NCBI GenBank assembly: GCA_016290905.1
Contig: JAEEVO010000001.1
Coordinates: forward strand, 61,412 to 125,411
DNA: 64,000 bases
DNA from: Lachnospiraceae bacterium
GTDB lineage: Bacteria; Bacillota; Clostridia; Lachnospirales; Lachnospiraceae
Direction of reading: 5' to 3'
In this document: in pieces, positions 8,312 through 62,610 of the stretch
How the letters are laid out: the number at the start of each line of letters is the position of its first letter
Numbering within the stretch: position 1 is the first letter of the stretch
Position numbers and translations under genes: made by a program
Notes under the pieces: generated by a model
Databases searched by the model: none
What the model was told of the DNA's origin: nothing
The model's input: only the letters and a program-made list of their open reading frames with translations

Positions 8312-8348
8312 TGGTATTATGTAATGCGGATAAGAAGGAGTTTATTGT

Positions 8349-17069: not shown

Positions 17070-17104
17070 TGAACGGTACAAAAATGAATTTACAGGAGAA
17101 TGCC

Positions 17105-19690
17105 ATGAAAAGAGAAACCACCGGCCTTGTTTATACAAATGACAGATGTATCGGATGTAACCGATGCATAATGGTATGTCCGGTCCAGGGAGCCAACAGA
17201 TCGGTAATATCCGAAGGAAAGAATAAAATACTTGTCGATCCTTCAAAATGCATACATTGCGGAAACTGTATCAGGGAATGCCGCCATCAGGCAAGGGATT
17301 ACATAGATGATACGGAAGCATTCATAAAAGATCTCGGAAATGAGAATATTTCCATAATAATCGCACCGTCATTCTTTGTTTTATATCCTTATACCTGTGG
17401 AAAGGTCATTAATTTCCTGCTTGATAACGGGATAAACTGTGCTTATGACGGAAGCCGGGGCGCGGATATAGCCCTGTGGGCGGCTTTGAAGTTTTTTGAT
17501 GAGCATCCGGAGGGGGGATACATATTCCAGACCTGTCCTTCTTTCGTAAATTTTGTAAGAACTTTTTCCAAGGAGATGCTTGAAAGGATAATACCTGTTC
17601 AGTCTCCGCCCGTATGTCTTGCAAAATATATCCATAAATATCTGAACAATAATGACAAGATAGCGTTTATAGGTCCGTGTATCGCAAAGAAGGATGAATT
17701 TGATTCTCCGGAGACGAACGGTGAGATATCCTATAACATTACCTATGACCATCTTATTAAGGCAATAGGTGATATAGATATCAGCGGGTATTCGAACGAT
17801 TTTGAAGGAAGAATGTATACGTTAGGCTCGGTTGTAGGGATCGTCGGGGGTATAAAGAGAAACCTTTCGAGATTCATTCCCGAGGATAAGTTTATTCTTT
17901 CTGTGGATAACGGAGTTTATTATCTTCCGTATTACGAGTATTACGAGAATCAGATGTTTAATGATGTTAACGCTCCTTTCGCGACAGATATAAACATCTG
18001 TGAACACGGTTGTATCGCCGGTCCGGGCACTGAGCGCATAGGACGAAATCTGGCAGAGATTGCCAGGGATTATGTAAAACTGAAGTCTGATGCGGTTGCA
18101 AAAAATCCTGAGCTTTATTCGGGGAAAAAGGACTATACGGAAAGAAAGAAGGCTCTTTATGAGATTTTTAAAGAGCTTGATCCCAAAGATTTTGAGAGGA
18201 AGTTTACCGGGAAATTTGTAAGGAAACAGACCATACCTCAGAGCGTTATAGATGAAACCTTCAACAACATGTATAAACCTTCCGCTTCAGACAGATGTAT
18301 AGACTGTGGTTCGTGCGGATACGGTACCTGCCGTGAGATGGCTGAGGCTATAGCACTCGGATATAACCGCAGGGAAAACTGCGTTTATTTCGAGAGAGAA
18401 GAGAACAAGAGACTGTATCTGACGGATATTGTGACAGGCATACCTAATGTCAGTTATTTTAACGCAAGGCTTGCAGAGATAATCAAGAGCGATCAGGGCG
18501 GAAAATATGCGGTCGTATCCTTCTCTTTAAGCGGATGGGAACTTTTGAACGAACGTTTTACATATGCTGAGGGCGACAAGACTATCATAGAATATGCATC
18601 CATTGTTGAAAAGCTTGCAAAGGAAGATGAGCTTGTGGCACATCACGGCGGCGTCGATTTTCTTGCGGTCATAAATAAAGAGAGGCTGGAGCAGTTCCTT
18701 AATGATATCCAGAGCATAGTTGTTCATCCGAATGACGGTTTGAAGGAAATAGATTATCCGGTATCCGTTACCGCGGGAATATATATGATGAATGATTATG
18801 AACGTCTGGCAGGAACCGTTATCGGACGTACAAATATCGCCGCGGCAAATGCAAAGGAAGGCGGGGCTAATATCATAATCTATGACCAGAGCATGAAAGA
18901 GCAGCTGCTGGAAACAATACAGATGATAAAGGCCTTTCCGGAAGCACTTAAAAAGTGCGAATTTCAGGTATATTATCAGCCCAAAATTGATACCGTTACC
19001 TCGATGATGCACGGAGCTGAGGCATTGGTACGATGGAAGATAAAGAAGGAACTGGTGTCTCCGGCAAAGTTCATTCCGCTTTTTGAGAAGAACGGGCTTA
19101 TCTGTCATCTTGATTTCTATATGCTTGAACATGTATGTCAGGATATAAGGAGATGGATAGACAGCGGTCTTGTACCGGTATGCATAAGCGTAAACTTCTC
19201 TAAGATACACTTTAAGGAAATGACCTTTGTTCAGGAGATTAAGAGAATAGTTGATAAATATGAGATACCTCATGAATATATCGAGATAGAGATAACTGAA
19301 AGCGCATATGAAGAGACAAAGGAAAACCTGAGGACCATTTTAAGAGAGCTTAACGTAATGGGATTTTCGACATCGATAGATGATTTCGGAGCAGGTTACT
19401 CTTCACTTAATCTTCTTTCGCAGTTTGATTTCCAGGTTCTCAAGCTTGATAAGGCTTTCCTTGATTCGGGAATAGAAGAGGAAAAGGTAAAGAATGTTGT
19501 TGACAGCGTTATTTCAATGGCAAAGAAGCTCGACATGAAGGTTGTTGCCGAAGGTGTTGAAAGACGGGAGGAGCTTGAACTGCTTCGAAAACTGTCCTGC
19601 GATCTTATACAGGGTTATTATTTTGACAGACCCATACCTACGGAGGATTTTGAGAAGAGATTGAGGATACCCGATTATTACAGGATCTGA
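17105..19690 (+). CDS. Sensory [FeFe]-hydrogenase-like (HydS-type) protein fused to a degenerate GGDEF and an EAL c-di-GMP phosphodiesterase domain
   Basis: Two ferredoxin motifs (CIGCNRCIMVCP, CIHCGNCIRECR). H-domain motifs FQTCPSF, IGPCIAKKDE and INICEHGCIAGPG. CIDCGSCGYGTCREMAEAIALGYNRRENC Fe-S motif. GGDEF-like domain carrying GGVDF. EAL motifs EALVRW, EIEITE, DDFGAGYSS, KLDKAF, EGVE and QGYYF. ATG 17105 follows a GGAG RBS. Confidence 0.8.
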   Translation: MKRETTGLVYTNDRCIGCNRCIMVCPVQGANRSVISEGKNKILVDPSKCIHCGNCIRECRHQARDYIDDTEAFIKDLGNENISIIIAPSFFVLYPYTCGKVINFLLDNGINCAYDGSRGADIALWAALKFFDEHPEGGYIFQTCPSFVNFVRTFSKEMLERIIPVQSPPVCLAKYIHKYLNNNDKIAFIGPCIAKKDEFDSPETNGEISYNITYDHLIKAIGDIDISGYSNDFEGRMYTLGSVVGIVGGIKRNLSRFIPEDKFILSVDNGVYYLPYYEYYENQMFNDVNAPFATDINICEHGCIAGPGTERIGRNLAEIARDYVKLKSDAVAKNPELYSGKKDYTERKKALYEIFKELDPKDFERKFTGKFVRKQTIPQSVIDETFNNMYKPSASDRCIDCGSCGYGTCREMAEAIALGYNRRENCVYFEREENKRLYLTDIVTGIPNVSYFNARLAEIIKSDQGGKYAVVSFSLSGWELLNERFTYAEGDKTIIEYASIVEKLAKEDELVAHHGGVDFLAVINKERLEQFLNDIQSIVVHPNDGLKEIDYPVSVTAGIYMMNDYERLAGTVIGRTNIAAANAKEGGANIIIYDQSMKEQLLETIQMIKAFPEALKKCEFQVYYQPKIDTVTSMMHGAEALVRWKIKKELVSPAKFIPLFEKNGLICHLDFYMLEHVCQDIRRWIDSGLVPVCISVNFSKIHFKEMTFVQEIKRIVDKYEIPHEYIEIEITESAYEETKENLRTILRELNVMGFSTSIDDFGAGYSSLNLLSQFDFQVLKLDKAFLDSGIEEEKVKNVVDSVISMAKKLDMKVVAEGVERREELELLRKLSCDLIQGYYFDRPIPTEDFEKRLRIPDYYRI

Positions 19691-22564: not shown

Positions 22565-23107
22565 ATGGCAAAATATGTTTGTAGTGTATGCGGTTATGTA
22601 TTTGAGGGAGATGCGGCACCTGCGGAGTGTCCCGTATGCCATGCGCCTGCAGAAAAGTTCAATAAGCAGGAAGGCGAGCTTACATGGGCAGCAGAGCATG
22701 TTGTCGGTGTGGCAAAGGGTGTCAGCGAAGATATATTAAATGATTTAAGAGCAAACTTTAACGGAGAGTGTTCAGAAGTCGGTATGTATCTGGCTATGTC
22801 CAGAGTAGCATTCCGTGAGGGATATCCCGAGATTGGTCTTTATTGGGAAAAGGCCGCTTACGAAGAGGCAGAGCATGCAGCTAAGTTTGCAGAACTGTTA
22901 GGCGAGGTAGTTACCGATTCAACAAAGAAGAATCTTGAGATGCGTATAGAAGCAGAGAATGGAGCAACAGCAGGAAAGACTGATCTTGCAAAGCGTGCGA
23001 AAGCTGCAAACCTTGACGCAATCCATGATACGGTTCATGAGATGGCAAGGGATGAGGCAAGACACGGCAAGGCATTCGAAGGACTTTACAAGAGGTATTT
23101 CGGATAA
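22565..23107 (+). CDS. rbr: Reverse rubrerythrin (N-terminal rubredoxin-like domain plus ferritin-like di-iron domain)
   Basis: 180 aa. CSVCGY...CPVCHAP rubredoxin motif at the N-terminus. ExxH di-iron motifs ([18 protein letters not shown]) in the C-terminal four-helix part. Confidence 0.9.
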
Positions 23108-23199: not shown

Positions 23200-23328
23200 C
23201 TACCCTGTCAAGAAATAACATCTTAAACACAATATAGTAAATTGCCTATACTATTACTCTCTATTACACTATTAAATGGAGATTTATATGATCCTGATCT
23301 GCCGTTATTATGCGGTATGGAGGTAGTA

Positions 23329-25746
23329 ATGAAAAAAGGAATATTTTCCAAAGCGGTTTTAAAACTGCTTGAAGAAAACGGAATAAAAGAAGACGACATA
23401 TTTGCGGCTTCGCCCGTCGATATGAATACGGAATGTGAATATGCCGACGGATTTGTGGTGGTGACGCTTGAAAAACTGGCGATCATCACATCACCGCCGG
23501 ATATCACCGAGGTTCGTTCATTTAAAGGCTATATGACCAAGCAGACTCCGTTGCAGAAGGATGAGAAGCAGTGGGCGTTGAAGCTGTATGAGCTTGATAA
23601 AGTGGAAGCCTTAAAGACAGAGCTTCAGGTGGCATGCAGCGTTCTGGTAGCGGATATTGACGGTATAACTTACAGACTTATCGCATTCTCAAATCTATAC
23701 AAGAGAGAGATGCATAAGCTGATAAGAACATTTGACCGTTTAAGTGCCGAGCTTAAGAGTGGTGATAAAAAAGAAGGCGGTCCCGGCGGAGAATTTAAAA
23801 AGGATGAGGATAGCGGATTATCAAAGGAAGAACGTCTTGAAAAGATAAAGACCTACGGTAAGGAAGAGGAAGGCGAGAAAAACGAATACTGTCCTATTTG
23901 CGGCATGATGTATCCCGACAGGAGCAGAAAGGTATGTCCGAGATGTATGGACAGGAAATCAATCTTTTTCAGGGTGCTCGGATATTTCAAGCCTTACAGA
24001 GGCAGGATAGCGGTCATGTTTACATGCTATATCCTGACTTCGCTTTTAAATCTGGTATGGCCCTATCTTAACGGTACGATCCTTTATGATAAGGTTCTTG
24101 CAAAGAACAATGAGTTTTTAAAACAGTTCGGCATAGAGGACAGTAAGTACATTACAGCCCTGTTGATGGTGGTTCTCACGATGCTTATGACAAGGGTTAC
24201 GCTCATTTTCATAAATATGCTTCAGGGTGTATTTGCAGCTAAGATAGTTACCGGTGTTGTATGTGACATGAAAAAGAGCATTTTCGGGAATATGGGAAAG
24301 CTGTCGATAAGCTTTTTCAGATCACGTCAGACGGGAAGTCTTATGACGCGTGTCATGAGTGATGCGGACAGAGTTACGGGTTTCTTCATAGACGGATGTC
24401 CTTACATATTTATTAACGGACTGATGATCATCGTTTCACTGGTAATGATGTTCAGTATAAAGTGGCAGATGACACTTATGGTCATTTTCATTATGCCTTT
24501 CGTAATGCTTATAGGCTTGAAGCTGAGACCTAAGGTTTGGACTCAGTTCGGACACAGGCACAGAGCCGAGCGTGCGGTAAACAGCCAGGTAAACGATAAC
24601 CTGACCGGAGCCAGGGTTGTAAAGGCTTTCGGGCAGGAGAACAGGGAGACAAACAGATTTGAGAAGAATAACCTAAGGTTAAGGGATGCCGAGATGAGCA
24701 TCGTCGGGACGCAGAATCTTGTAAGAGGTTCTTACTCGGGCATATTTGAGTTCCTGAATATTTCTGTATGGCTTATCGGTGTTTATCTGATAATGGTAGC
24801 AGGAGAGATAGAGCTTGGAGTACTCATTACTTTTGTAGGTTATATAGGACAGCTCCAGGGTCCCATAAACTTTTTCTCGAGAATATTCCACTGGTGGGCC
24901 GACAGTATGAACAGTGCCCAGAGAATGTTTGAGATAATTGATTCCGTACCGGAGATCAGAGAGGCGGAAAATCCCAAGACACTCGAGGATCCTAAGGGAA
25001 GGATAGAGTTAAAGAATGTATCCTTCGGATATGAGGTAAACCGTCCTGTTTTAAAGGAACTTAATCTTGAAATAAAGGAAGGCAGCATGCTGGGGATCGT
25101 AGGACGTTCCGGTGCGGGAAAGACCACGCTGGTAAACCTTATCTCGAGAATGTATGATCCGCAGGAGGGACAGATACTTATTGACGGTACCGATATAAAG
25201 GATCTGTCGTTCAAGTCCTTAAGAAGAAACGTTGCGATGGTTTCTCAGGAGACCTATATATTCATGGGAACCGTTGAGGAAAACATAGCGTATGCTAATC
25301 CTTCGGCTTCACATGCCGATGTTATACGTGCGGCTAAGCTTGCGAGTGCTCATGAATTCATAATGAGGATGCCCGACGGGTACGATACCAGGATAGGTTC
25401 CTCGGGCAGGGAGCTTTCGGGCGGAGAGAAGCAGCGAATTTCAATAGCAAGAGCGATACTCTCAAATCCCAAGATACTGATACTCGATGAAGCAACAGCT
25501 TCTGTTGATACTGAAACCGAGAGGGATATACAAAGATCGATCGCATATCTTATAAAGGGAAGGACGACGATATCCATAGCGCACAGGCTTTCAACCTTAA
25601 AGGATGCGGACTATCTTGTCGTAATAGATAACGGGAAGATAACGGAACGCGGAACCCACAAGGAGCTTGAGGAGCTTAAAGGAACGTATTTCAAGCTTAT
25701 GGAACTGCAGCGTAAGGCGCTGTCACTTAGAGGCGTTATGGAATAG
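23329..25746 (+). CDS. ABC exporter half-transporter (TMD-NBD) with about 230-aa N-terminal PH-like plus zinc-ribbon module
   Basis: ATG 23329 after a GGAGG RBS. N-terminal ADGFVVVTLEKLAIITS and CPICGMMYPDRSRKVCPRC. Six-helix exporter TMD. Walker A GRSGAGKTT, signature LSGGEKQR, Walker B ILILDEATS. Confidence 0.85.
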   Translation: MKKGIFSKAVLKLLEENGIKEDDIFAASPVDMNTECEYADGFVVVTLEKLAIITSPPDITEVRSFKGYMTKQTPLQKDEKQWALKLYELDKVEALKTELQVACSVLVADIDGITYRLIAFSNLYKREMHKLIRTFDRLSAELKSGDKKEGGPGGEFKKDEDSGLSKEERLEKIKTYGKEEEGEKNEYCPICGMMYPDRSRKVCPRCMDRKSIFFRVLGYFKPYRGRIAVMFTCYILTSLLNLVWPYLNGTILYDKVLAKNNEFLKQFGIEDSKYITALLMVVLTMLMTRVTLIFINMLQGVFAAKIVTGVVCDMKKSIFGNMGKLSISFFRSRQTGSLMTRVMSDADRVTGFFIDGCPYIFINGLMIIVSLVMMFSIKWQMTLMVIFIMPFVMLIGLKLRPKVWTQFGHRHRAERAVNSQVNDNLTGARVVKAFGQENRETNRFEKNNLRLRDAEMSIVGTQNLVRGSYSGIFEFLNISVWLIGVYLIMVAGEIELGVLITFVGYIGQLQGPINFFSRIFHWWADSMNSAQRMFEIIDSVPEIREAENPKTLEDPKGRIELKNVSFGYEVNRPVLKELNLEIKEGSMLGIVGRSGAGKTTLVNLISRMYDPQEGQILIDGTDIKDLSFKSLRRNVAMVSQETYIFMGTVEENIAYANPSASHADVIRAAKLASAHEFIMRMPDGYDTRIGSSGRELSGGEKQRISIARAILSNPKILILDEATASVDTETERDIQRSIAYLIKGRTTISIAHRLSTLKDADYLVVIDNGKITERGTHKELEELKGTYFKLMELQRKALSLRGVME

Positions 25747-25768
25747 TTTTTTATGGAAAGGAATAAAA

Positions 25769-26347
25769 ATGGGAAGATTTGACAGAAACAGAGGCGGCTT
25801 TGACGGTGGTGAGGATTTCAATCTCGAACAGATGGAGAAAGAAACCGAAGAGATGCTGAAGATGCGTTTTCTCGATAAAAAGAATGCCGAGTTTAAGGCT
25901 ACCGGCGGAGGATTCATATCGCTCAAGGTAGGCGATGAAGAGTATAAGAGGGTACAGGTCGTGAGGATGTTTCCTTTCACCGACCCCGATCATTATATTT
26001 CAATAAGGACATCGGATGAGAATTCAAAGGAAATAGGGATAATAAAGGATTTAAAGGATGTTACGAAGGAAACGGCAAAGCTCCTGACGGATCAGATGAA
26101 CATCAGGTATTTTACGCCGGTCATCACTAAGATCATAAACATTAAGGATGAATACGGTTATGCATATTTCGATGTTGTGACCGACAGGGGTGAATGCAGG
26201 TTCACCATAAACATGGGAGGCAGCTCGGTGGTACATCTGACCGAAACGAGGATACTTATTTCGGACGTGGATGAAAACAGGTTTGAAATTCCGGATGTAA
26301 TGGCACTGAGCACTGCCGAAAGAAAGAAGCTTGATCTGTTCCTGTGA
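25769..26347 (+). CDS. DUF1854-like protein (ABC-exporter-associated)
   Basis: 192 aa from ATG 25769, soluble. The family call rests on my recollection that DUF1854 proteins are encoded next to or between ABC exporter genes (VRMFPFTDPDHYISIR, RYFTPVITKI). Not verifiable without an HMM search. Confidence 0.45.
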   Translation: MGRFDRNRGGFDGGEDFNLEQMEKETEEMLKMRFLDKKNAEFKATGGGFISLKVGDEEYKRVQVVRMFPFTDPDHYISIRTSDENSKEIGIIKDLKDVTKETAKLLTDQMNIRYFTPVITKIINIKDEYGYAYFDVVTDRGECRFTINMGGSSVVHLTETRILISDVDENRFEIPDVMALSTAERKKLDLFL

Positions 26348-26401
26348 TAACGGGCTTAAACTGTTTCATGGGGATGTTTGGGATACGATCGGAGATCAAA
26401 A

Positions 26402-28609
26402 ATGATACTGAAATATGATTTAAAGGACTCATATGTCGGGCTTTTAAAGCTTGAACCCGAAGAGACCGTTGTTTACTGCGTGCCGTATGACATTGCGGAT
26501 GACGGCGGCTTTTTGAGGGATTCATATGTAGTCATCACGGAAAAACGGCTCTTTGTAATAGAAGAGGGAGTCTTGAAAAAAGAACTTAAGCTGGATGAAA
26601 TATCCGAAGTTATAAGCGAGCCGATGATAGCCTGCGGAGTGCTTTTCTACACTCAGAAAACCGGAGAAAGCAAGGATGATTTTTCCGAAAACATACTTGT
26701 TCGGTTTTCGTCAAAGCATCTTTCAAGATTTGCATATATTTCAAGGGGCTGCAGACTGTTAAAGGAAAACCCCGAGGCAAGGGTTTTCAGTAATGAGAGT
26801 GAAACAACCTGTCTTAAATGCGGAAGAGCCCTGCCCGGGACAAAGGTGTGCCCGAGATGTTCAAACAAAAAACGGGGCATGGTACATGAGCTAAAAACCA
26901 TGATAGCTCCTTATAAGAAAACCATGGGTGTGATCATGATCTTCATGCTCCTTGCGACATGTGTGACACTGTTCAATCCGTCAATGCAGAAGGTGCTGAT
27001 AGATGATGTGATAAAGAATGGTGATAAAACCTTCTTAAGTGCTCTGCCGGTGTTGTTGGCTATGTTTGCTATGAGCGGCGGCATCATATTGATAAACATC
27101 ATGAAATACTATCTGTGTTCAAAGCTCGGAGCAAATGTCAGCACGGATCTGAGAAGAAAGCTGTATCAGAAGATCCAGCTTCTCTCACTGTCGTTTGTTA
27201 ATGACAGAAAACCCGGTGAGCTTATGAACAGGGTGGTAAACGATACGGCAAGAGTAAAGGAATTCATAAACGATACGGCATGTGACCTGCTTACGGTCGG
27301 GGTTATCTTCGTATTTGATGTAGTGTTCATGCTTATCTTAGACTGGAAGCTTGCGCTGCTTGCATTTGCTTTCATACCCGTGACGGTTCTCATATCAATG
27401 AGCTTCAGGAAATTTGTCCATAGGCGTTTTCATATGCAGTGGGTGAAATCAGATAAGATCCACAGCAATCTGCAGGATGTTATCTCCGGCATGTCGGTAG
27501 TTAAATCCTATGGTAAGGAAGAAGAGGAGTCACAGCACTTTAACGAAACGGCCGAGGAATTTAAGGAAGTTCAGTTCAATAACGAGAAGTTCTGGGCGGT
27601 ATTCTTTCCGGCTATGCAGTTCATGGTCAGTGTGGGAGTTTATTTTGTAACCTACTTTGGTGGAGTAAAGGTGCTTGATGAGACCAAGACGGTTGGAGAA
27701 CTTATACAGTTCATAACATATTCTTCAATGCTTTACCAGTATGTCGGCTGGCTGACGAACCTGCCGAGACAGCTTATGAACCTTGTGACAAGCATGGAGC
27801 GTATCGGTGATATAATGGATCAGGAGCCGGATATCTTTGATACGGATAAATCGGTTGAACTTGCTGTAAAGGGACATGTAGAGTTTAAGGATGCTTCCTT
27901 CGGATATAAGTCATATAAACCCGTACTTGACGGTATTTCTCTTGACGTAAAGCCCGGTGAGATGATAGGTCTTGTCGGAGCTTCCGGTACAGGAAAATCC
28001 ACCCTGATAAATCTTATCATGCATCTTTACGAGGTGGATAACGGTGAGATACTTATCGACGGTGTGAATATCAGAGACATAAAGCTTGAGAACTATCATT
28101 CGCAGATAGGTGTCGTACTTCAGGAGACATTTCTGTTTACGGGTACGATACTTAACAATATAAGATTTGCACGTCCGGATGCAACCTATGAGCAGATTAT
28201 TCAGGCGGCAAAAATGGCTAATGCACATGAGTTCATTTGCAGGACTCCGGATGGATATAATACTTACTTAAGTGAGCGAGGATTCAATCTTTCCGGAGGT
28301 GAGAGGCAGAGGATCGCGATTGCAAGGGCGATACTGAATAATCCCAAGCTGCTCATCCTTGATGAGGCTACCGCAAGCCTCGATACCGAAAGCGAATATC
28401 TGATCCAGAAGGCTTTGGAAAGACTGACTAACGGCAGAACGACCTTTGCCATAGCGCACAGGCTCTCCACACTTAAAGATGCTGACAGGCTCGTGGTCAT
28501 AGATAATCATCACATAGCCGAGGTTGGCACTCATGACGAGCTTATGGCCAAGGGCGGCATATACGCCGGACTTGTAAACGCCCAGCTCGAGATGAATGCG
28601 GAAATATGA
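26402..28609 (+). CDS. ABC exporter half-transporter (TMD-NBD) with N-terminal PH-like plus zinc-ribbon module; paralog of 23329-25746
   Basis: N-terminal DSYVVITEKRLFVIEEG and CLKCGRALPGTKVCPRC. Walker A GASGTGKST, signature LSGGERQR, Walker B LLILDEATA. Confidence 0.85.
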   Translation: MILKYDLKDSYVGLLKLEPEETVVYCVPYDIADDGGFLRDSYVVITEKRLFVIEEGVLKKELKLDEISEVISEPMIACGVLFYTQKTGESKDDFSENILVRFSSKHLSRFAYISRGCRLLKENPEARVFSNESETTCLKCGRALPGTKVCPRCSNKKRGMVHELKTMIAPYKKTMGVIMIFMLLATCVTLFNPSMQKVLIDDVIKNGDKTFLSALPVLLAMFAMSGGIILINIMKYYLCSKLGANVSTDLRRKLYQKIQLLSLSFVNDRKPGELMNRVVNDTARVKEFINDTACDLLTVGVIFVFDVVFMLILDWKLALLAFAFIPVTVLISMSFRKFVHRRFHMQWVKSDKIHSNLQDVISGMSVVKSYGKEEEESQHFNETAEEFKEVQFNNEKFWAVFFPAMQFMVSVGVYFVTYFGGVKVLDETKTVGELIQFITYSSMLYQYVGWLTNLPRQLMNLVTSMERIGDIMDQEPDIFDTDKSVELAVKGHVEFKDASFGYKSYKPVLDGISLDVKPGEMIGLVGASGTGKSTLINLIMHLYEVDNGEILIDGVNIRDIKLENYHSQIGVVLQETFLFTGTILNNIRFARPDATYEQIIQAAKMANAHEFICRTPDGYNTYLSERGFNLSGGERQRIAIARAILNNPKLLILDEATASLDTESEYLIQKALERLTNGRTTFAIAHRLSTLKDADRLVVIDNHHIAEVGTHDELMAKGGIYAGLVNAQLEMNAEI

Positions 28610-33797: not shown

Positions 33798-33826
33798 TTG
33801 ACAAAAGAAGAATTACATATTATAAT
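33798..33826 (+). promoter_or_regulatory. Consensus SigA promoter of the nitrogenase-like/ABC operon
   Basis: Perfect TTGACA (33798-33803), 17 nt spacer, perfect TATAAT (33821-33826), about 340 nt upstream of the first ORF. Confidence 0.6.
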
Positions 33827-33958
33827 TGCGCTAGCTCTGACACCGAAACAGTTGTTAAGGTGAAAGAAAATGCAGTATACGGTATGTTCCGGCACGGGAA
33901 AGATATGTTCTGCCTGATGTCGCATGATCGTGAAGCAAATTCTGTTTGCTTACAGATA

Positions 33959-33975
33959 TTTCTTTAATAAAGAAA
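33959..33975. promoter_or_regulatory. 8-1-8 perfect palindrome in the leader (candidate operator)
   Basis: TTTCTTTA-A-TAAAGAAA, nested inside a CAGAT...ATCTG inverted repeat. Confidence 0.35.
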
Positions 33976-34048
33976 GATCATCTGTAAATAGCAAATGAAC
34001 ACAAAGGATAAAACTGCATGTAAATGAATTGACAATTTTCGGGTATCA

Positions 34049-34079
34049 GGGCTGCATCCGCTTGGAAGCAGTCCTTTTT
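34049..34079 (+). terminator. Terminator-like hairpin inside the operon leader (candidate attenuator / riboswitch expression platform)
   Basis: GGGCTGCATCC-GCTT-GGAAGCAGTCC followed by TTTTT, 85 nt upstream of ATG 34165 and about 220 nt downstream of the promoter. Confidence 0.5.
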
Positions 34080-34164
34080 AAATTGTTGGCTGAGCAAACG
34101 GTCACATAAGAGAGATTGCTCTTGAAATGTCCGATAAATATACTTAAAAAACGGAGAAAAGAAA

Positions 34165-34428
34165 ATGAAAAGCAGAGTTGCAGTAATATCGATAATACTT
34201 GAAGATGTTTCCTCGGTAGAGAAACTAAATTCCATCCTTTCAAAATACCGGGAGAGGATAATCGGGAGGATGGGACTTCCATACAGGGAAAAGAACGTTA
34301 ATATTATATGTGTTGCCGTAGATGCTCCCGAGGATGAAATAAACAGTATGACGGGGCAGATAGGCCGGTTAAACGGAGTATCAGCGAAAACAAATTATTC
34401 AAATGTAATGTCTGAATTGGATGGATAG
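34165..34428 (+). CDS. TM1266-family small ACT-fold protein (annotated elsewhere as putative iron-only hydrogenase system regulator)
   Basis: 87 aa. RVAVISIILEDVSSVEKLNSILSKYRERIIGRMGLPYREKNVNIICVAVDAPEDEINSMTGQIGRLNGV matches my memory of the TM1266/TIGR03959 pattern (..GRMG.PYRE....I......). Confidence 0.55.
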   Translation: MKSRVAVISIILEDVSSVEKLNSILSKYRERIIGRMGLPYREKNVNIICVAVDAPEDEINSMTGQIGRLNGVSAKTNYSNVMSELDG

Positions 34429-34463
34429 TATTTTTACGGCAGATTATTAAGGGGCTGACTAAG

Positions 34464-35450
34464 GTGAAAAAAAAGACAATTATAATACTGATCATACTTC
34501 CTGTTATAACAGCACTTGCAAGTTTATGTATCGGAAGGAATTCCGTAAGTCCGGCAGATGTATTTAAGGCATTGACAGGTTCACAGGACATACAGGGAAG
34601 CGTCAGGATAACCATTCAGAACATAAGACTTCCCAGAATCCTGCTTGGTCTGTTATGCGGCGCGGGACTTTCGGTTGCAGGCTGCAGCTTTCAGGGATTT
34701 TTCTCAAATCCTCTGGCAACTCCGGATACAATGGGAGTTGCGGGTGGCGCAAGCTTCGGTGCAGCGCTTGGACTGCTGTTTGGATTTAACATGATCGGAG
34801 TACAGGTTTTATCCCTTTGTATGGGACTGGGCGCGGTTCTCATGACCAGGCTTGCAGCTTCGGGAAGGGAGCATGGACCGGCAGTGCTCATAATTTCAGG
34901 CATAATGGTCGGAGCGCTTTTTTCGGCGCTGGTTTCACTGGTTAAATTTATTGCTGATGCGGAATCACAGCTTCCTGCCATCACCTATTGGCTGATGGGG
35001 AGCCTGGGGAGTGCGGGATATAAAAATCTTGCCATAGGAGCTCCGGTGATCATAGCCGGGATTGTTGTGATCTTTCTTCTCAGGTGGAGGATGAACCTGC
35101 TCTCTCTTTCGGAGGACGAGCTTACCGCTTCAGGGACAAACGTAAAGCTTTTAAGGTCTCTGGTTGTCATTTCTGCAACGGCTGTGACAGCATCAGTGAT
35201 TTCCATGTGCGGCCAGGTAGGCTGGGTAGGCCTTATCGTACCGCATATGTGCAGGCTGATCTGGGGACAGGATAACAGAAAGCTTATACCCGCTTCGATA
35301 TGTATCGGGGCAGCGTTCATGGTAATAGTCGATACGGTTGCCAGATCTGTTAGTGCGTCCGAGATACCGGTGTCAATACTTACTGCGATCATCGGTGCCC
35401 CTTTCTTTATCATGATACTTACATCAAGGAAGAAATTGGTGTCTGTTTAA
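34464..35450 (+). CDS. FecCD-family metal-chelate ABC importer permease
   Basis: 328 aa, GTG start. LPRILLGLLCGAGLSVAGCSFQGFFSNPLATPDTMGVAGGASFGAA is the hallmark FecCD/BtuC N-terminal region. About 9-10 TM segments. Confidence 0.9.
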   Translation: MKKKTIIILIILPVITALASLCIGRNSVSPADVFKALTGSQDIQGSVRITIQNIRLPRILLGLLCGAGLSVAGCSFQGFFSNPLATPDTMGVAGGASFGAALGLLFGFNMIGVQVLSLCMGLGAVLMTRLAASGREHGPAVLIISGIMVGALFSALVSLVKFIADAESQLPAITYWLMGSLGSAGYKNLAIGAPVIIAGIVVIFLLRWRMNLLSLSEDELTASGTNVKLLRSLVVISATAVTASVISMCGQVGWVGLIVPHMCRLIWGQDNRKLIPASICIGAAFMVIVDTVARSVSASEIPVSILTAIIGAPFFIMILTSRKKLVSV

Positions 35451-35473
35451 ATTGATAAAATGATGTTAAGTAG

Positions 35474-35546
35474 CTGTCATTCTGAGCGAAGCGAAGAATC
35501 TTAAGCTTTATCAGATAACATCCTTCGCTGACACTTAGGATGACAG
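35474..35546. repeat. REP-like palindrome, type A, copy 2
   Basis: CTGTCATTCTGAGCGAAGCGAAGAATC ... CATCCTTCGCTGACACTTAGGATGACAG. Lies in the 160-nt spacer between the permease and ATPase genes. Confidence 0.75.
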
Positions 35547-35610
35547 ATTAAAAGGATTGCTGTTATAAATTGGGTTTAGATAAGCCAAATGCGGTTCATT
35601 GGGTGGAAAA

Positions 35611-36414
35611 ATGAAAATACAGACCGAAAATGCTTCGTTTTCTTATGAAAACAGAAAAGGTGGCAGGACAATCTTTGATAAAGTTAATACGTCCCTTGAC
35701 GGAGGACGGATAATGGCGATACTTGGGCCTAACGGAAGCGGAAAGACAACGTTCTTAAGATGCCTTATGGGAATGCTGAAGTGGACGGACGGGAGAAGTC
35801 TTTTTGACGGGCGGGATACAAATACCATGAGCCCCAAAGAGTTCTGGGAAAAGGTCAGCTATGTTCCTCAGCAGCGCATGGCAACTTCCGGATATTCAGC
35901 ATTTGAAAACGTGCTTCTTGGCAGGAGCGGGCAGGTGTCGTTTTTTGGAACGCCGGGGAAAGCCGATATCGAGGCAGCGGAAGGAATAATGGAAGAACTT
36001 GGCATCATCGAATACAGAAACAGACCGTGCAGTTCTTTAAGCGGAGGAGAGTTTCAGATGATTCTGATAGCAAAGGCATTGGTTTCCAACCCAAAGCTTC
36101 TGATACTTGACGAGCCCGAATCGGGGCTTGATTTCAGAAACCAGCTGATAGTCCTGAACACCTTGGACAGATTAAAGGAGAAAGGCATAAGCTGTATATT
36201 CAATACACATTACCCGAAACACGCTCTTCAGAAAGCGGATGTTTCACTGATACTCGGAGGCGAAAAACCGATATTCGGGAAGACCGGGGAAGTGGTTAAT
36301 GAAAAGAATATTGAGAACGTGTTCGGTGTCAGGGCTGTAATAAACGAGTTGGTGGTGGACGGTGAGACCATAAAGAATATCGTCCCCCTGTATGTGACCG
36401 GCAGGAAGGATTAA
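35611..36414 (+). CDS. Metal-chelate ABC importer ATP-binding protein (FepC/BtuD-like)
   Basis: Walker A GPNGSGKTT, signature LSGGEFQ, Walker B LLILDEPESGLD. ATG 35611. Confidence 0.9.
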   Translation: MKIQTENASFSYENRKGGRTIFDKVNTSLDGGRIMAILGPNGSGKTTFLRCLMGMLKWTDGRSLFDGRDTNTMSPKEFWEKVSYVPQQRMATSGYSAFENVLLGRSGQVSFFGTPGKADIEAAEGIMEELGIIEYRNRPCSSLSGGEFQMILIAKALVSNPKLLILDEPESGLDFRNQLIVLNTLDRLKEKGISCIFNTHYPKHALQKADVSLILGGEKPIFGKTGEVVNEKNIENVFGVRAVINELVVDGETIKNIVPLYVTGRKD

Positions 36415-36449
36415 GTGTTGTCCTGCTGAATCGGTTAGTAATCATGTTT

Positions 36450-36521
36450 TGTCATCCCGAGCGTCAGTGAAGGATCTTATCGCGTAAGGTTAAAAGATTC
36501 TTCGCTTCGCTCAGAATGACA
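36450..36521. repeat. REP-like palindrome, type A, copy 3 (inverted relative to copies 1-2)
   Basis: TGTCATCCCGAGCGTCAGTGAAGGATC ... GATTCTTCGCTTCGCTCAGAATGACA. Lies in the 194-nt spacer between the ATPase and NifH-like genes. Confidence 0.75.
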
Positions 36522-36608
36522 TCTGTAAATGGTTGTTCATAACAGGCTTATCGGGAAAGGAAAAAAGGTTCGTTTCCCGGAGAAATGAATTATGAGGTGA
36601 CAAACTAT

Positions 36609-37355
36609 ATGAGAAAGATAGCAATATACGGAAAAGGCGGAATAGGAAAATCGACTACGGTTTCGAATGTGGCTGTAGCCCTAAGCAGGAAGGGTTATAA
36701 GGTCATGCAGATAGGCTGTGATCCCAAGGCTGATTCAACCATGGCACTCAGGAAGGATAAGGAGATAAAAACGGTGCTCGATCTTATCCGGGAGAAAAAG
36801 AATGACTTTGATCATACGGATATGGTGACGGTAGGCGCGGAAGGCGTGCTGTGTGTTGAAGCGGGCGGACCTACGCCGGGAGTAGGATGTGCCGGAAGAG
36901 GTATAATAGCGGCACTTGACAAGCTGAAAGAAAAAGGAGCCTACGAAATATATAAACCTGATATCGTATTATACGATGTTCTCGGAGATGTTGTGTGCGG
37001 CGGATTTTCAATGCCTATGCATGCAGGCTACGCCGACTGCGTATATATTGTAACCTCGGGAGAAAACATGGCGATACATGCAGCTGCAAACATAGCAATG
37101 GCCATAGATAATTTCAGGTCGAGAGGATATGCTTCACTGGGCGGGCTGATACTAAACCATCGCGATGTTAAGAATGAAAGACAGAAGGTAGAAGAGCTTG
37201 CCTCGGACTTTAATACTCAGATTATAGGTGAGCTTACCCGAAGCGAAACGGTAAGCCTTGCAGAGGAACTCGGAAAGACTGTCATGGAAGCATTCCCCGA
37301 CAGTGACATGGCAAGAGAATATGAAGCGCTTGCGGATAAGCTTATAGGATATTAA
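36609..37355 (+). CDS. NifH/BchL/CfbC-family nitrogenase-like reductase ATPase (Fe-protein homolog)
   Basis: [18 protein letters not shown]-loop, switch [10 protein letters not shown], cluster ligands in VGCAGRGII and [11 protein letters not shown] (switch II). Confidence 0.9.
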
Positions 37356-37365
37356 GGTCAAAAGC

Positions 37366-37417
37366 CCAAACACCGGGAAGAAGCGATTTACTTTGAAAAA
37401 TCGCGGCATCCGGGGTG
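37366..37417. repeat. REP-like repeat, type B, copy 2
   Basis: CCAAACACCGGGAAGAAGCGATTTACTTTGAAAAATCGCGGCATCCGGGGTG. About 85 percent identical to 28622-28663 by eye. Lies in the 109-nt spacer between the NifH-like and NifD-like genes. Confidence 0.7.
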
Positions 37418-37464
37418 AAAAAAATTTGAAGAGAAAGGGACGTCGTGATCCGACCGGATAAGAT

Positions 37465-38832
37465 ATGCTGAAAAGAGTTGGAAATAAAGAAATAACTGAA
37501 GACGGTTCAGTGATAAGACTGGGGGATTCGGTTTTTCCCGCACCTTTTAAAAGCGGGCTTGAATATGCTTCGCCGGCAAGAGGAACTTGGAACATTGTAC
37601 ATACGGGTATGCTCGTCCCGGAAACACATGAGATATTCGTTTGCGCGGCAAGCTGTTTGAGGGGTGTGGTGCTTACGGCTGCAGAGATGGATGCCATGGA
37701 CAGATTTTCGACCGTTGAGGTACGCGAAAACAACCTATTGGAAGGAAATCTTGAGGAACTGTTGATCGATGGGGTAAGCGACATCATAGTAAAGCTTGGG
37801 CAAAAACCGCCCGCAGTTCTTGTTTACACAAGCTGTGTGCATCATTTTACGGGATGCGACTGGAAGGTCATGTTCGGAACTTTAAGAGAAAGGTTTCCGG
37901 ATATTGATTTTGTCGACTGCTATATGAACCCGACGTTGAGAAAGAGCGGGCTTACTCCGGATCAGATTATGCGTAGGCAGCTTTATTCACTGCTTAAACC
38001 TCGCAAAACGAACAGGAACGCTGCGGCAATAATAGGAAACGACCTGCCGACAAACAAGAACTCTGAGATTATTTCCGTTCTTAAGAAGTGCGGGATGAAG
38101 CTCCATGAGATAACCTCCTGCAAAACGTATGAAGAATACCAGGAGATGGCGGAGAGCAGTTTTTATATAAGCTATTATCCTTCCGCACGTGCGGGTGGGG
38201 ACGAACTTGAAAAGAGACTTGGCGGGAAACACATATATCTTTCTTACAGCTGGGATTATGATAAGATAACGGATGCTCTTAACCGGCTTGAAATGCTGAT
38301 GAGCGAAAACAAAGAAGATGATGCTTTTGAAAGCTTAAATGGATTTGTAAAAGAAAAGGCGGAATGCGAGAAGGCGTTTGACGAAGCCTTAAAGCTTATC
38401 GGGGATACTCCGATTGCGATAGATTACACATTTTGCCCGAGTATTACAACTGTTGCAAAAGCTCTCCTTGAACATGGCTTTAATGTCAGAAGGCTGTATG
38501 TGGACAGTTTCATAGGAGAAGAGAAGGAGGAATATAACTTCCTTAAGGAAAAATATCCCGAACTGATGCTTTATGCGACGGTCAATACCAAGTCAAGGTT
38601 CATGGCTCCGACCGGTGGCAGCGTGAGTGAAAAATGGCTTGCGATAGGTCAGAAAGCGGCATATTTCCTGGGTACGGAAAATTTTGTCAACATTGTCGAG
38701 GGCGGCGGCATGTTCGGTTTTGAGGCTGTGAAAGACACCTTGGAGCTTATGAAGGAAGCGTTTCTTAACGAAAAGGACATGAGAAAACTTGTACAGATAA
38801 AGGGTATGGGCTGCGGTTGCTGCGGTGAATGA
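37465..38832 (+). CDS. Nitrogenase component-1-type oxidoreductase, NifD/E-like subunit
   Basis: 455 aa. General Oxidored_nitro layout with Cys in IFVCAASCLRG and VYTSCVHHFTGCD. Unusual C-terminal GMGCGCCGE tail. Position directly after the NifH-like gene. Confidence 0.7.
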   Translation: MLKRVGNKEITEDGSVIRLGDSVFPAPFKSGLEYASPARGTWNIVHTGMLVPETHEIFVCAASCLRGVVLTAAEMDAMDRFSTVEVRENNLLEGNLEELLIDGVSDIIVKLGQKPPAVLVYTSCVHHFTGCDWKVMFGTLRERFPDIDFVDCYMNPTLRKSGLTPDQIMRRQLYSLLKPRKTNRNAAAIIGNDLPTNKNSEIISVLKKCGMKLHEITSCKTYEEYQEMAESSFYISYYPSARAGGDELEKRLGGKHIYLSYSWDYDKITDALNRLEMLMSENKEDDAFESLNGFVKEKAECEKAFDEALKLIGDTPIAIDYTFCPSITTVAKALLEHGFNVRRLYVDSFIGEEKEEYNFLKEKYPELMLYATVNTKSRFMAPTGGSVSEKWLAIGQKAAYFLGTENFVNIVEGGGMFGFEAVKDTLELMKEAFLNEKDMRKLVQIKGMGCGCCGE

Positions 38833-39976
38833 AAGGAGAAAGGATTTGAAACAGACTTCGGGATTTATATCCACGTATTCCGCTGATACATTCGGCGTAT
38901 GTTCGGCTTTGTTTGAGCTTGGCGGCATGGTGGTCATGCATGATGCTTCCGGATGTAACTCGACATATACGACGCATGATGAGCCGCGCTGGTATGATAT
39001 GGACAGCATGGTCTATATTTCCGGACTTACTGAGATAGAAGCGATAATGGGTGATGATGCAAAACTGATAGCAGATATTACGGAAGCGGCAAAAGAACTC
39101 AGTCCCAGATTCATTGCCATAGTGGGAACACCGATCCCCGCCATGACGGGCTTTGATTTTGACGCTGCCTCGGCAGTGATAACGGCTGAAACCGGGATAC
39201 CGGCGTACGGTTTTAAGACTACCGGTATGAGATCGTATATTTACGGAGCCGGAGAGGCATTCCTTAGGATTGCCGACTGTATGGTAAACAGGAATATAAC
39301 AAGATCGGAGAATCAGTCGGTGAATATCCTTGGGCTCACACCTCTTGATTTTTCGATAAACAAAAGTGCGGAATCCATTATCGGTCATTATGCGAAAAAG
39401 GGATATGATATCATTTCGACATGGGCCATGGGGTGCACGTTGGAGGATATGAAAAAAGCAGGAGGCGCGCATATGAATCTGGTTGTTTCCGAGACGGGAC
39501 TCCCGGCGGCCGTGCGATTAAAGGAACTGTTTGGTACGCCTTATTCGGTAGGTGTACCCGTTGGAGGAGAGGATATCGATATAACGGACATGTATCCGGC
39601 AGGAGATCCGGAAAAGAACAGATCGGCTGTTTTTTCGTCAGGAGACGGGGATGTTAAGGTGCTGATAATAGGTGAGGGCGTTTCCTCAAAATCACTTGCT
39701 AAATACCTGAATATAAAGACAGGCAGGAGCGTTGCTTCACTTACCGCCACAGACTTAAGCGAGGATGAGATATCAGAGACGATAAACGGTTATAAGAACC
39801 TGGAAACGGTTATCGCAGATCCGCTTTTTAAACCTTTGTGCAAATCATACGGAGATGAAAAAGGGATGAGCTTTGTCTCTCTTCCTCATGAAGCGTTTTC
39901 GGGAAGATTGTACAGGAAAGACATACCGGATCTTATAAAAGATGCAAACGAAATACTTAAAAGTATTCGGAAATAA
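38825..39976 (+). CDS. Nitrogenase component-1-type oxidoreductase, NifK/N-like subunit
   Basis: 383 aa from GTG 38825. The alternative TTG 38846 lies 7 nt after an AGGAG RBS and is at least as likely. ADTFGVCSALFELGGMVVMHDASGCNSTY and AIVGTPIPAMTGFD resemble the NifK/NifN/BchB-type N-terminal regions. Confidence 0.65.
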   Translation: MNERRKDLKQTSGFISTYSADTFGVCSALFELGGMVVMHDASGCNSTYTTHDEPRWYDMDSMVYISGLTEIEAIMGDDAKLIADITEAAKELSPRFIAIVGTPIPAMTGFDFDAASAVITAETGIPAYGFKTTGMRSYIYGAGEAFLRIADCMVNRNITRSENQSVNILGLTPLDFSINKSAESIIGHYAKKGYDIISTWAMGCTLEDMKKAGGAHMNLVVSETGLPAAVRLKELFGTPYSVGVPVGGEDIDITDMYPAGDPEKNRSAVFSSGDGDVKVLIIGEGVSSKSLAKYLNIKTGRSVASLTATDLSEDEISETINGYKNLETVIADPLFKPLCKSYGDEKGMSFVSLPHEAFSGRLYRKDIPDLIKDANEILKSIRK

Positions 39977-40002
39977 AAAACAAATTACAAGGAGATAATG
40001 AA

Positions 40003-41133
40003 ATGAAGAAACTATTGGCATTATTACTGGTATTAACGCTGTCTTTGGGAATTACGGCATGTTCATCGGAAGAAAAAAAAGAACCTGCCGCAGCGGAAGG
40101 AAAACATGTGGTAACGGATCATGCGGGAAATCAGGTTGAGGTTCCGAACACGATCAACCGTATAGTTGTTGCGGATATTTATCCGATGGCATCGGTGCTT
40201 ACGGTATTCTTTGATTCGGCAGAGAAGATCGTAGGAATGGCACCTCCATGTATGAGTGCCGCAAAGAACGGGCTTTTGGGAGAGCTTTATCCCGAAATCT
40301 TAAATGCAAAGACGGATTTCATCGACGGTACGAACGTTAATGTCGAGGAGCTGATGAAGCTCAATCCCGATATCGTATTCTACAGTGCCGGAAGCAAGGA
40401 GGAAGGCGAGGTTTACAAGAATGCCGGCATACCCGCAATTGCCATTTCTCCCGGAAAATGGGGTTATGATGCAATAGAGACTTTAAACCAGTGGATTGAT
40501 ACACTTGTTCAGTTATTTCCCGAAAACAACAAGTCGAAAACCGTAAGGGAGTATTCGGAAAATACATATAAGCTTGTTCAGGACAGAGTAAAGGATCTTT
40601 CCGCCGATAAAAAGGTTAAGGCATTTTTCCTGTTCCAGTATTCCGATTCGAATATTATGACCAGCGGAAAGAAGTTTTTCGGTCAGTGGTGGTGTGACGC
40701 CATCGGTGCGGTGAATGCTGCCGAAGAGCTTGAAAACGACAACTCCGTAGCCGTAAACATGGAACAGATTTATTCGTGGAATCCCGAGATGATCTTCATC
40801 ACGAATTTTAATACGGCATCTCCCGACAATCTGTACAATAACTCGATAGGAAATTATGACTGGAGTGAGATCAATGCGGTAAAGAACAAAAAGGTTTATA
40901 AGATGCCGCTCGGGATGTACAGGAGCTATACCTGCGGAGTTGATACGCCCGTAACGCTTCTCTGGCTGGCAAAGACAGCTTATCCGGATCTTTTTGAGGA
41001 TATAAACATAACTGATGAGACAGTAAAATACTATAAAGAAGTCTTTGGTATAACGCTTACGAACGATCAGGCGGAAAAGATATTTAAACCCGTGAGCGAA
41101 GCGGGAACAGGTTTTGCGGGAAACGGAAAATAA
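40003..41133 (+). CDS. Metal-chelate ABC importer substrate-binding lipoprotein (FhuD/BtuF/HmuT-type periplasmic binding protein)
   Basis: 376 aa. Lipobox LGITAC. RIVVADIYP...PDIVFYS...PEMIFITN pattern of PBP class III (PF01497-like). Confidence 0.8.
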   Translation: MKKLLALLLVLTLSLGITACSSEEKKEPAAAEGKHVVTDHAGNQVEVPNTINRIVVADIYPMASVLTVFFDSAEKIVGMAPPCMSAAKNGLLGELYPEILNAKTDFIDGTNVNVEELMKLNPDIVFYSAGSKEEGEVYKNAGIPAIAISPGKWGYDAIETLNQWIDTLVQLFPENNKSKTVREYSENTYKLVQDRVKDLSADKKVKAFFLFQYSDSNIMTSGKKFFGQWWCDAIGAVNAAEELENDNSVAVNMEQIYSWNPEMIFITNFNTASPDNLYNNSIGNYDWSEINAVKNKKVYKMPLGMYRSYTCGVDTPVTLLWLAKTAYPDLFEDINITDETVKYYKEVFGITLTNDQAEKIFKPVSEAGTGFAGNGK

Positions 41134-41141
41134 TGGTTTTC

Positions 41142-41183
41142 GGAGTCACAAAGGAGCATAATCCTTGTGACTCCTATATTTTT
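41142..41183 (+). terminator. Intrinsic terminator ending the nitrogenase-like/ABC operon
   Basis: GGAGTCACAAAGGA / TCCTTGTGACTCC 13-bp stem (one bulge) followed by TATATTTTT, 9 nt after the stop. Confidence 0.65.
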
Positions 41184-41184
41184 C

Positions 41185-41213
41185 TTGACATTTTTTGATT
41201 ATGACTGTAAAAT
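41185..41213 (+). promoter_or_regulatory. SigA-type promoter candidate for comFB-like gene
   Basis: TTGACA, 17 nt spacer, TAAAAT. Confidence 0.5.
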
Positions 41214-62393: not shown

Positions 62394-62610
62394 GCAGTTC
62401 ACCTCCATGTTCATTTATATTTTGCGTGCTCCCGAAAAAACGGGTATACACCCCCAACTACATAATAGCACATTGTATTGGCTTTTTCAAGCAAAAGTCT
62501 TTAAAAAACATAAAAAAACAGGGTTTACATCTACTGATTTTAATATTATAATGTTCGGGTAGTAAAAGAATAACCGGGTTATAACCATCCGGTTGATTTT
62601 GGAGGCAAAA

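Follow-up and report, generated by a model that had tools for sequence, protein, structure and literature searches.

The operon at 34165-41133 of a 64-kb window (the window being the whole stretch of Lachnospiraceae DNA analysed here) encodes an uncharacterised and widespread variant of the nitrogenase-like kind of enzyme, in a gene context that is without precedent. Its seven genes, all on the + strand, specify a NifH-like Fe-protein ATPase, a D-like (NifE/D-like) and a K-like (NifN/K-like) component-1 subunit, the permease, ATPase and binding lipoprotein of an ATP-binding cassette (ABC) importer and, at the head, a small ACT-like protein of the TM1266 family. A search of protein clusters at 90% identity matched more than 4000 proteins of the clade. 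The reading preferred here, at a probability of about 0.45, is that the products form an ATP-driven reductase or scaffold of NifEN/NifH type which, fed by the importer, would help to assemble CO/CN-ligated iron cofactors. Several features predicted from the DNA point to it: the TM1266 family of the first product, the maturases HydE, HydF and HypFCDE as neighbours in relatives, a fusion of the K-like subunit to HydE (K::HydE), D/K family profiles for which NifE is the best match, the recurring pairing with an importer, and a protein with an H-cluster domain elsewhere in the window.

The D-like subunit (37465-38832, 455 amino acids) matches PF00148 at E 1e-10 only and the K-like subunit (38825-39976, 383 amino acids) matches the same family at E 3e-23, gene identities throughout having been assigned by Pfam and NCBIfam profile matches. 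For the D-like protein there is no NCBIfam match at all, and as a single sequence its best PDB relative is NifE at E 0.1; the K-like protein, queried in the same way, finds BchB (4e-7) and NifD (9e-7). Profiles built from the family place NifE first for both subunits (4e-15 for the D-like and 1e-22 for the K-like), followed by VnfD/NifD, MarD and BchN/BchB, with MarD reaching only E 5e-9 for the D-like subunit. An AlphaFold2 (AF2) model of the D-like protein, of pLDDT 92.7, has the nitrogenase component-1 fold (structure match E ~1e-15) and superposes on NifN, NifK and NifE at a TM-score of ~0.6, with identity of only 11-15%. The K-like protein scores 28-48 bits on NifD/NifK-type models, whose cutoffs are 450-650, and among its matches, given as score over cutoff in bits, are nifE 48/505, BchB 36/490, CfbD (TIGR03282) 21/268 and nifN 20/327. 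By these comparisons, no characterised nitrogenase-like group is close to the pair.

The distance extends to the cluster ligands. Nitrogenase proper has three P-cluster cysteines in each of D and K, and FeMoco ligands at the equivalents of Cys275 and His442. Across the 822 clusters at 50% identity that make up the D/K family, which divides into two deep clades (A, which includes the window's pair, and B), the only invariant cysteines are D C64, D C124 and K C44, the last in a DxSGC motif; K C26, not invariant in the family, is retained by most of clade A. Only three to four of the six P-cluster cysteines are present, none of the FeMoco ligands is conserved, and in the family alignment the C-terminal half of the D-like subunit is devoid of invariant Cys and His. 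Because of this pattern the pair would hold the ligands for a single inter-subunit [4Fe-4S] cluster, and a site of the NifEN/DPOR/CfbD type fits where a P-cluster or FeMoco site does not. None of nifB/E/N, PII, hyd or hyp genes was found among the 37 open reading frames (ORFs) of the window that were scanned, a set that leaves aside four ORFs at 58943-63183; nifB/E/N were also missing from the conserved neighbours in the 80 related loci described below. With ligands for one cluster only and no nifB/E/N found, N2 fixation by the operon products can be all but ruled out; a preliminary description of this DNA had already called it unlikely. That description had further seen nothing in the 64 kb resembling nifB/E/N/V, Mo-uptake or PII genes; this holds for nifB/E/N and PII within the scanned ORFs and fails for Mo uptake, the importer's nearest characterised relative being MolBC-A.

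The Fe protein (36585-37355, 256 amino acids, PF00142 at E 3e-87) keeps the P-loop (G16KGGIGKS), both switches (switch I reading C45DPKADST) and the two cluster cysteines, C102 in GCAGRG and C138 in VCGGF; many close homologues are 247-248 amino acids long, which makes M9, at 36609, probably the true start. Even so it falls below every curated NCBIfam cutoff (nifH 313/394, CfbC 308/402, BchL 193/345 and BchX 158/331 bits), and its solved relatives in the PDB are headed by MarH (235 bits), then NifH (224) and BchL (140). A genuine if unusual nitrogenase could be argued for from the full retention of Fe-protein motifs, and from the label 'nitrogenase iron protein NifH' carried by this protein in source databases. 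Yet the curated nifH cutoff is missed, the D/K pair reaches 0-48 bits where 450-650 are called for, P-cluster cysteines are incomplete, conserved FeMoco ligands are lacking and nifB/E/N were not found, so that this option is barely credible. The same source databases name the partner proteins 'nitrogenase', 'oxidoreductase' or 'hypothetical'. Genes of this sort could be miscounted as diazotroph markers in nifH surveys of gut and rumen, and should not be counted.

What accompanies the reductase genes was followed in relatives, with one genome per GTDB species. D-like relatives occur in 315 species, and the best 80 loci, which were analysed, come from Lachnospiraceae, Oscillospiraceae, Mogibacterium, Anaerovoracaceae and related gut and rumen Clostridia. 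Where flanking sequence suffices on both sides, the order permease-ATPase-H-D-K-binding protein is kept in 49 of 56 species loci, the other seven having TM1266-H-D-K and no importer; to judge from such recurrence, the arrangement is far beyond chance. In clade B, where the D-like subunit is only ~28% identical, the order is binding protein-permease-ATPase-H-D-K or H-D-K-binding protein-permease-ATPase, and at one such locus (L085) identity to the window's proteins is 48% for the binding protein and 50% for the permease. Given the conserved order and importers that remain 48-50% identical across the clades, the importers are, on comparative grounds, orthologous, and their coupling to the reductase is old and specific. 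The co-conservation of the two, which the preliminary description had put forward as a check on itself, is thereby borne out. DUF6273 was considered as a further conserved partner and dropped, being present in few loci only.

The small first gene (34165-34428, 87 amino acids) heads the module in 60 of the 61 related loci with enough upstream flank. Its product had earlier been taken simply as a small ACT protein. ACT-like it is, but it also belongs to the TM1266 family (PF21699 at E 1e-30; TIGR03959 at 109 bits, cutoff 60.8; PDB 2NZC, TM1266 itself, at E 6e-10), an identity that was missed together with its HydE/HydF/HypFCDE context. The name of TIGR03959, 'iron-only hydrogenase system putative regulator', derives from co-occurrence with HydE/F/G, and to our knowledge no biochemical function is established for the family. 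No link between TM1266 and nitrogenase-like genes was found in the papers searched.

In 32 of the 80 species loci the stretch between the importer ATPase and nifH-like genes holds two extra genes, one for a further TM1266 paralogue and one for a canonical HydE (533 bits, cutoff 255). Downstream of the binding protein gene, ~25 of the 80 have a canonical HydF (557 bits, cutoff 326), with a gap of only 20-50 nucleotides in the closest relatives of the window (L002-L007, L081). At L093 a single protein of 782 amino acids (4211-6559) joins an N-terminal K-like part to a full-length HydE (584 bits), the gene order being HypC-HypD-HypE-TM1266-D-K::HydE with no nifH-like gene between. L088, like L090 and L093, belongs to branches of clade A that have lost the importer and lie amid both hydrogenase maturation systems; in it HypF-HypC-HypD-HypE are followed by TM1266, a NifH-like::D-like fusion protein (6165-8354, 729 amino acids), K, HydF, HydE and a lyase of FumC/AspA type; L090 repeats this order as far as HydF. 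Fusions of D to K, 786-1010 amino acids long, are known from several lineages (P0136, P0144, P0172, P0193 and P0218). A metagenome scan seeded from the importer-free branch of L093 type gave 80 loci (L096-L175), mostly from human gut and representing 21 lineages at 90% identity. Every sufficiently long contig among them carries an 11-gene unit, H1-D1-K1, HypF-C-D-E, TM1266, H2-D2-K2 (for example L099, 876-12531), in which two divergent nitrogenase-like sets flank the Hyp proteins that build Fe(CN)2CO. Neither HypA nor HypB is found in the unit, and these metagenome loci usually have no hydrogenase gene. In L121 (750-2270) and L110 (765-2282), a [FeFe]-hydrogenase of 506 amino acids (two Fer4 motifs and Fe_hyd_lg_C, 221 bits) is encoded immediately ahead of a cluster made up of a lone K-like gene, HypFCDE, TM1266 and H-D-K, which places an [FeFe] enzyme next to maturases of [NiFe] type and nitrogenase-like genes. 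No weak second HydE-like match of the kind expected of HydG was seen near the 175 loci, a negative of little weight as no HydG query was used.

Separately, in 13 of 56 loci TM1266-H-D-K is preceded, at a distance of ~3-5 kb, by two tandem genes for HypB, the Ni-insertion GTPase, these loci being L074 (2432-3784) and 12 other loci of Mogibacterium and Anaerovoracaceae.

Maturases are usually encoded beside their target, and it could accordingly be asked whether the D/K pair is itself the target, as a new metalloenzyme with an active-site Fe-CO/CN cofactor built by the Hyp and Hyd proteins and with an importer that supplies substrate or metal. Most HypFCDE-TM1266-HDK clusters do lack a hydrogenase structural gene, HypA and HypB, and HydE and HydF are inside or adjoining the operon. 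However, a second cofactor would be short of anchors, since no Cys or His is invariant in the family apart from the ligands of the single cluster; linked maturases are missing from the window and from many relatives, and the clusters of L121 and L110 do carry a [FeFe]-hydrogenase gene. We regard this explanation as distinctly unlikely.

In the window itself, an H-cluster domain is present 14 kb upstream of the operon. The protein at 17066-19690 (+ strand, 874 amino acids) has two Fer4 motifs, Fe_hyd_lg_C (E 2e-20), GGDEF and EAL, and from this domain make-up looks like a distant sensory hydrogenase-like protein wired to cyclic di-GMP signalling; the organism would therefore need H-cluster maturases encoded somewhere.

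The importer was previously assigned to the BtuCDF/FhuBCD/HmuUVT type, with heme, corrinoids or siderophores as cargo. That assignment does not survive comparison with solved structures and curated models. The permease (34464-35450, 328 amino acids; PF01032, FecCD, at E 5e-82) is MolB-like and of the type II class, its best solved relative being HI1471 MolB at 232 bits, ahead of the hemin permease BhuU (167), FhuB (152), HmuU (148) and BtuC (130), and it is below every NCBIfam cutoff for BtuC, Fec and Fhu. Scores over cutoffs for importer equivalogs are BtuC 202/461, FecC 173/396, FhuB 161/849, IsdE 47/299 and BtuF 19/234. The best single-domain solved relative of the ATPase (35599-36414, 271 amino acids from a TTG start, with an alternative ATG at 35611; PF00005 at E 3e-31) is HI1470 MolC at 122 bits. 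For the class III binding lipoprotein (40003-41133, 376 amino acids, lipobox LGITAC; Peripla_BP_2, PF01497, at E 1.5e-19), which is MolA/CeuE-like, the sequence ranking in the PDB is 4OVK, an uncharacterised Veillonella protein, at 147 bits, MolA (HI1472) at 86, TM0189 at 57, Helicobacter pylori CeuE, a Ni-His2 binder, at 55 and FhuD at 22. Foldseek on an AF2 model (pLDDT 88.6) returned the same order, with siderophore and heme binders far lower. At ~26% identity MolA is nonetheless the nearest characterised relative, followed by CeuE. In these rankings MolBC-A comes out nearest among characterised relatives for permease, ATPase and binding protein alike, and a heme, corrinoid or siderophore importer is rejected on the solved-relative ranking along with the missed cutoffs. 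MolBC-A (HI1470/71/72) is a type II ABC importer of molybdate and tungstate, small oxyanions (PMC4031551). A small metal species is the more likely cargo here, over a bulky chelate or tetrapyrrole.

The original proposal of metal-chelate or tetrapyrrole import followed by reduction loses ground on a second count, for no tetrapyrrole biosynthesis genes are conserved near the module. The TM1266 identity and the context of HydE/HydF, K::HydE and HypFCDE point instead to hydrogenase-cofactor biogenesis and away from salvage of an exogenous tetrapyrrole. A more general form of import and reduction deserves separate weighing. It would have an exogenous metal complex or small metal species imported and then reduced at the expense of ATP for assimilation, for instance by reductive release or activation of the metal, the maturases being neighbours only through use of the same metal. 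The self-contained module of importer and H-D-K in clade B and in the window is what such a function would call for, as are the orthology of the importers across the clades and their retention with the reductase in 49 of the 56 species loci; a single [4Fe-4S] site is also what the substrate-reducing DPOR, COR and CfbCD have. Left unexplained are the K::HydE fusion, the importer-free HypFCDE-TM1266-HDK clusters and the seven importer-free species loci; nor is the transporter of heme, B12 or siderophore type, and no tetrapyrrole genes are conserved in the vicinity. The idea is possible, though on balance unlikely.

Assimilation of sulfur, selenium or an oxyanion, in which an imported small anion would be reductively cleaved or reduced by analogy with MarHDK/IsrHDK, is very doubtful. 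In its favour, the NifH-like protein finds its best solved relative in MarH, MolBC-A as nearest characterised importer handles tetrahedral oxyanions, and Isr is co-expressed and co-regulated with an ABC transporter (PMC13474568). But the D/K pair is far from MarD on the profile comparison above and lacks cysteines of P-cluster type, no MarB/NifB homologue turned up and no sulfur-metabolism genes were seen among the neighbours, and the Hyp and Hyd links would stay without explanation.

Assembly of a hydrogenase-type cofactor accommodates these links, in a scheme whose substrate, direction of flow and connection to hydrogenase activity we infer from the observed gene content, motifs, fold, ligand pattern, transporter type, neighbourhoods and fusions. 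The lipoprotein-dependent importer, of the MolBC-A kind, would take up a small metal-containing solute, for instance an oxyanion, a complex of Ni or Fe, or another species of comparable size. ATP hydrolysis by the NifH/MarH-like dimer of this deep-branching system would send electrons of low potential, by way of the D/K cluster, to a metal-containing substrate bound on D/K; the D/K pair would act as reductase or scaffold much as NifEN-NifH does for FeMoco. The product might then feed the assembly of CO/CN-ligated iron cofactors of hydrogenases with HydE and HydF or, in sister clades, with HypFCDE, and TM1266 could be a small regulatory or ligand-binding partner. By analogy with the NifB to NifEN/NifH sequence, the metal intermediate would be supplied by Hyp proteins or, in the lineage of the window, by import.

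Several observations weigh against the scheme. The operons of clade B consist of the importer and H-D-K alone, without TM1266, Hyd or Hyp genes. In the window operon tblastn finds no hydE, hydF or [FeFe]-hydrogenase gene, and neither tblastn nor the scan of the 37 ORFs found hydE, hydF or hyp genes in the 64 kb. The segments around two conserved motifs of the binding protein, FFGQWW and YRSYT, differ from the aligned MolA sequence, so the cargo of MolBC-A need not be that of the operon's importer. Clustering with maturases could result from shared metal or redox regulation instead of a shared pathway. Lastly, synthesis of the H-cluster in defined systems is reported to need no more than HydE, HydF and HydG on top of general metabolism, and any role of the operon would therefore be accessory or belong to an alternative route.

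A bolder version of hydrogenase-cofactor assembly makes the family the missing ATP-driven part of hydrogenase metallocofactor biogenesis in anaerobes. It might reduce CO2 (~-530 mV) for the CO ligand or reduce Fe-CN/CO synthons of HypCDEF; either activity would open a way to the [2Fe] subcluster that runs via HydE and HydF and bypasses HydG; and in lineages like that of the window the importer might replace Hyp by salvage of an external metal precursor. This extension is improbable as a whole. Its appeal is that the source of CO for the [NiFe] cofactor under anaerobic conditions is an acknowledged open problem, whose solution would need ~-530 mV and ATP (PMC12134894).

The boundaries of the operon are as first described. 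Upstream, a sigma-70-type promoter at 33798-33826 (+ strand) has TTGACA and TATAAT separated by 17 nucleotides and agrees with the consensus at 12 of 12 positions; taken together, promoter-like sites are no more numerous in the region than in shuffled sequence. The leader that follows is long, ~340 nucleotides (33827-34164, + strand), and folded, at -89.9 kcal/mol (z = -3.8 against shuffles). Within it a terminator-like hairpin at ~34047-34074 is followed by TTTTT at 34075-34079, ~85 nucleotides before the first start codon, and may be a lineage-specific attenuator; conservation of the leader upstream of homologous operons was not found with nhmmer. A riboswitch was considered and rejected, Rfam giving zero matches at gathering or relaxed thresholds. 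Downstream, at 41142-41185 (+ strand), an intrinsic terminator has a 13-bp G+C-rich stem with arms GGAGUCACAAAGG and CCUUGUGACUCC, then the U-run UAUAUUUUUCU; at -20.9 kcal/mol (z = -6.4) it is real, yet was missed by an automatic terminator scan. The seven ORFs, their motifs, the promoter and the terminator were all confirmed. In order, the gaps between the genes are 35, 148, 170, 109, -8 and 26 nucleotides, the negative value reflecting overlap of the start of the K-like gene with the last 8 nucleotides of the D-like gene, and a scan of the window placed no terminator-like site in the six intergenic gaps. Further upstream on the + strand, at 23242-28609, two large genes for fused ABC exporters (ABC_membrane with ABC_tran) stand on either side of a DUF1854 gene, and rubrerythrin is encoded at 22565-23107; no relation of either to the seven-gene operon was seen.

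Nitrogenase-like enzymes are a short list of remarkable ATP-driven reductases, and the clade described here is a large addition that is common in Clostridia of human gut and rumen. Its conserved neighbours, HydE, HydF, HypFCDE, TM1266 and the importer, lead to a testable hypothesis, that of a nitrogenase-like (NFL) reductase or scaffold in the building of the CO/CN-iron cofactors of hydrogenases; if true, alternative pathways to the H-cluster become possible. A Chemical Reviews survey of July 2026 sorts nitrogenase-like proteins into Groups IV-A to IV-F, V and VI and counts the functions of uncharacterised clades among the greatest challenges of the field, and a hydrogenase or chelate-transport context is not mentioned in it for nitrogenase-like clades (PMC13474568). 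For Groups IV-D and IV-E, two unnamed clades, the survey offers no gene context. In full-text searches, which took in genomic-context studies of hyd genes, not one paper brought nitrogenase-like genes together with HydE/F/G, HypCDEF, TM1266 or importers of this type, and the earlier statement that there is no characterised precedent is in keeping with the literature.

Among known systems, the operon belongs to the NFL superfamily in the generic sense, with PF00142 motifs in the Fe protein and partners of PF00148 fold, and stands outside Nif/Vnf/Anf on every count: cysteines, FeMoco ligands, curated scores and nifB/E/N. DPOR (BchLNB) and COR (BchXYZ), of Group V, and CfbCD, of Group IV-B, act on tetrapyrroles and combine an ATP-driven Fe protein with a component 1 that has a simple [4Fe-4S] cluster only (PMC13474568). 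The operon products share that plan, and the CfbC model gives 308 bits on the NifH-like protein, but all curated cutoffs are missed and conserved tetrapyrrole biosynthesis genes are not nearby. CfbD, moreover, works without a K-type partner, whereas in this family D and K invariably occur as a pair or a fusion, and it is only the K-like protein that the CfbD model (TIGR03282) matches. With the C-S bond reductases MarHDK and IsrHDK (Groups IV-C and IV-F) there are in common the position of MarH as best solved relative of the NifH-like protein and, for Isr, association with a transporter, albeit one of a different family. Those enzymes use cofactors resembling the P- and L-clusters and a NifB homologue; the operon family is without the cysteines concerned, and no NifB or MarB homologue is present among the window ORFs scanned or the conserved neighbours.

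Group VI, from Elusimicrobia, is described as having divergent D/K, few P-cluster cysteines, no nifB, radical-SAM neighbours and a proposed cofactor-biosynthetic role (Meheust et al., bioRxiv 10.1101/765248). The operon family shares highly divergent D/K, scarce P-cluster cysteines, lack of nifB and radical-SAM neighbours. Set apart by description, Group VI has a NifH that is sister to BchL/BchX, whereas the H protein of the operon is nearer to NifH and MarH (224-235 bits, against 140 for BchL). The Group VI neighbours include many B12-binding or HemN-type radical-SAM proteins, in place of HydE/HydF/Hyp/TM1266 or an importer, and the hosts are Elusimicrobia and not gut or rumen Clostridia. As to the remaining genes, MolBC-A is the nearest solved relative of the permease and of the single-domain ATPase and the nearest characterised one for the binding protein, which is distant from MolA and closer to 4OVK; the first gene product passes the curated TIGR03959 cutoff and matches the solved TM1266 structure.

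Another parallel is NifEN-NifH, the scaffold of FeMoco maturation with its Fe protein, supplied by the radical-SAM enzyme NifB. Differences from it are plain: the nifE and nifN scores are far under their cutoffs, there is no nifB, nifDK or nitrogenase, and the neighbours of the operon family are hydrogenase maturases and a MolBC-A-like importer. What is shared is the best match of D/K profiles to NifE, short subunits, an Fe-protein partner and one [4Fe-4S] site between the subunits, with its conserved ligands at positions corresponding to those of NifE/NifN. The ligands of NifEN are NifE C37, C62 and C124 together with NifN C44; three of these four positions appear conserved in D/K, which is a resemblance and not membership. 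D::K fusions occur here, as does a fused NifEN there. Each has a radical-SAM gene alongside, HydE in the one and NifB in the other, and where HydE is once fused to the N/K-like subunit, natural NifN-B fusions provide the counterpart.

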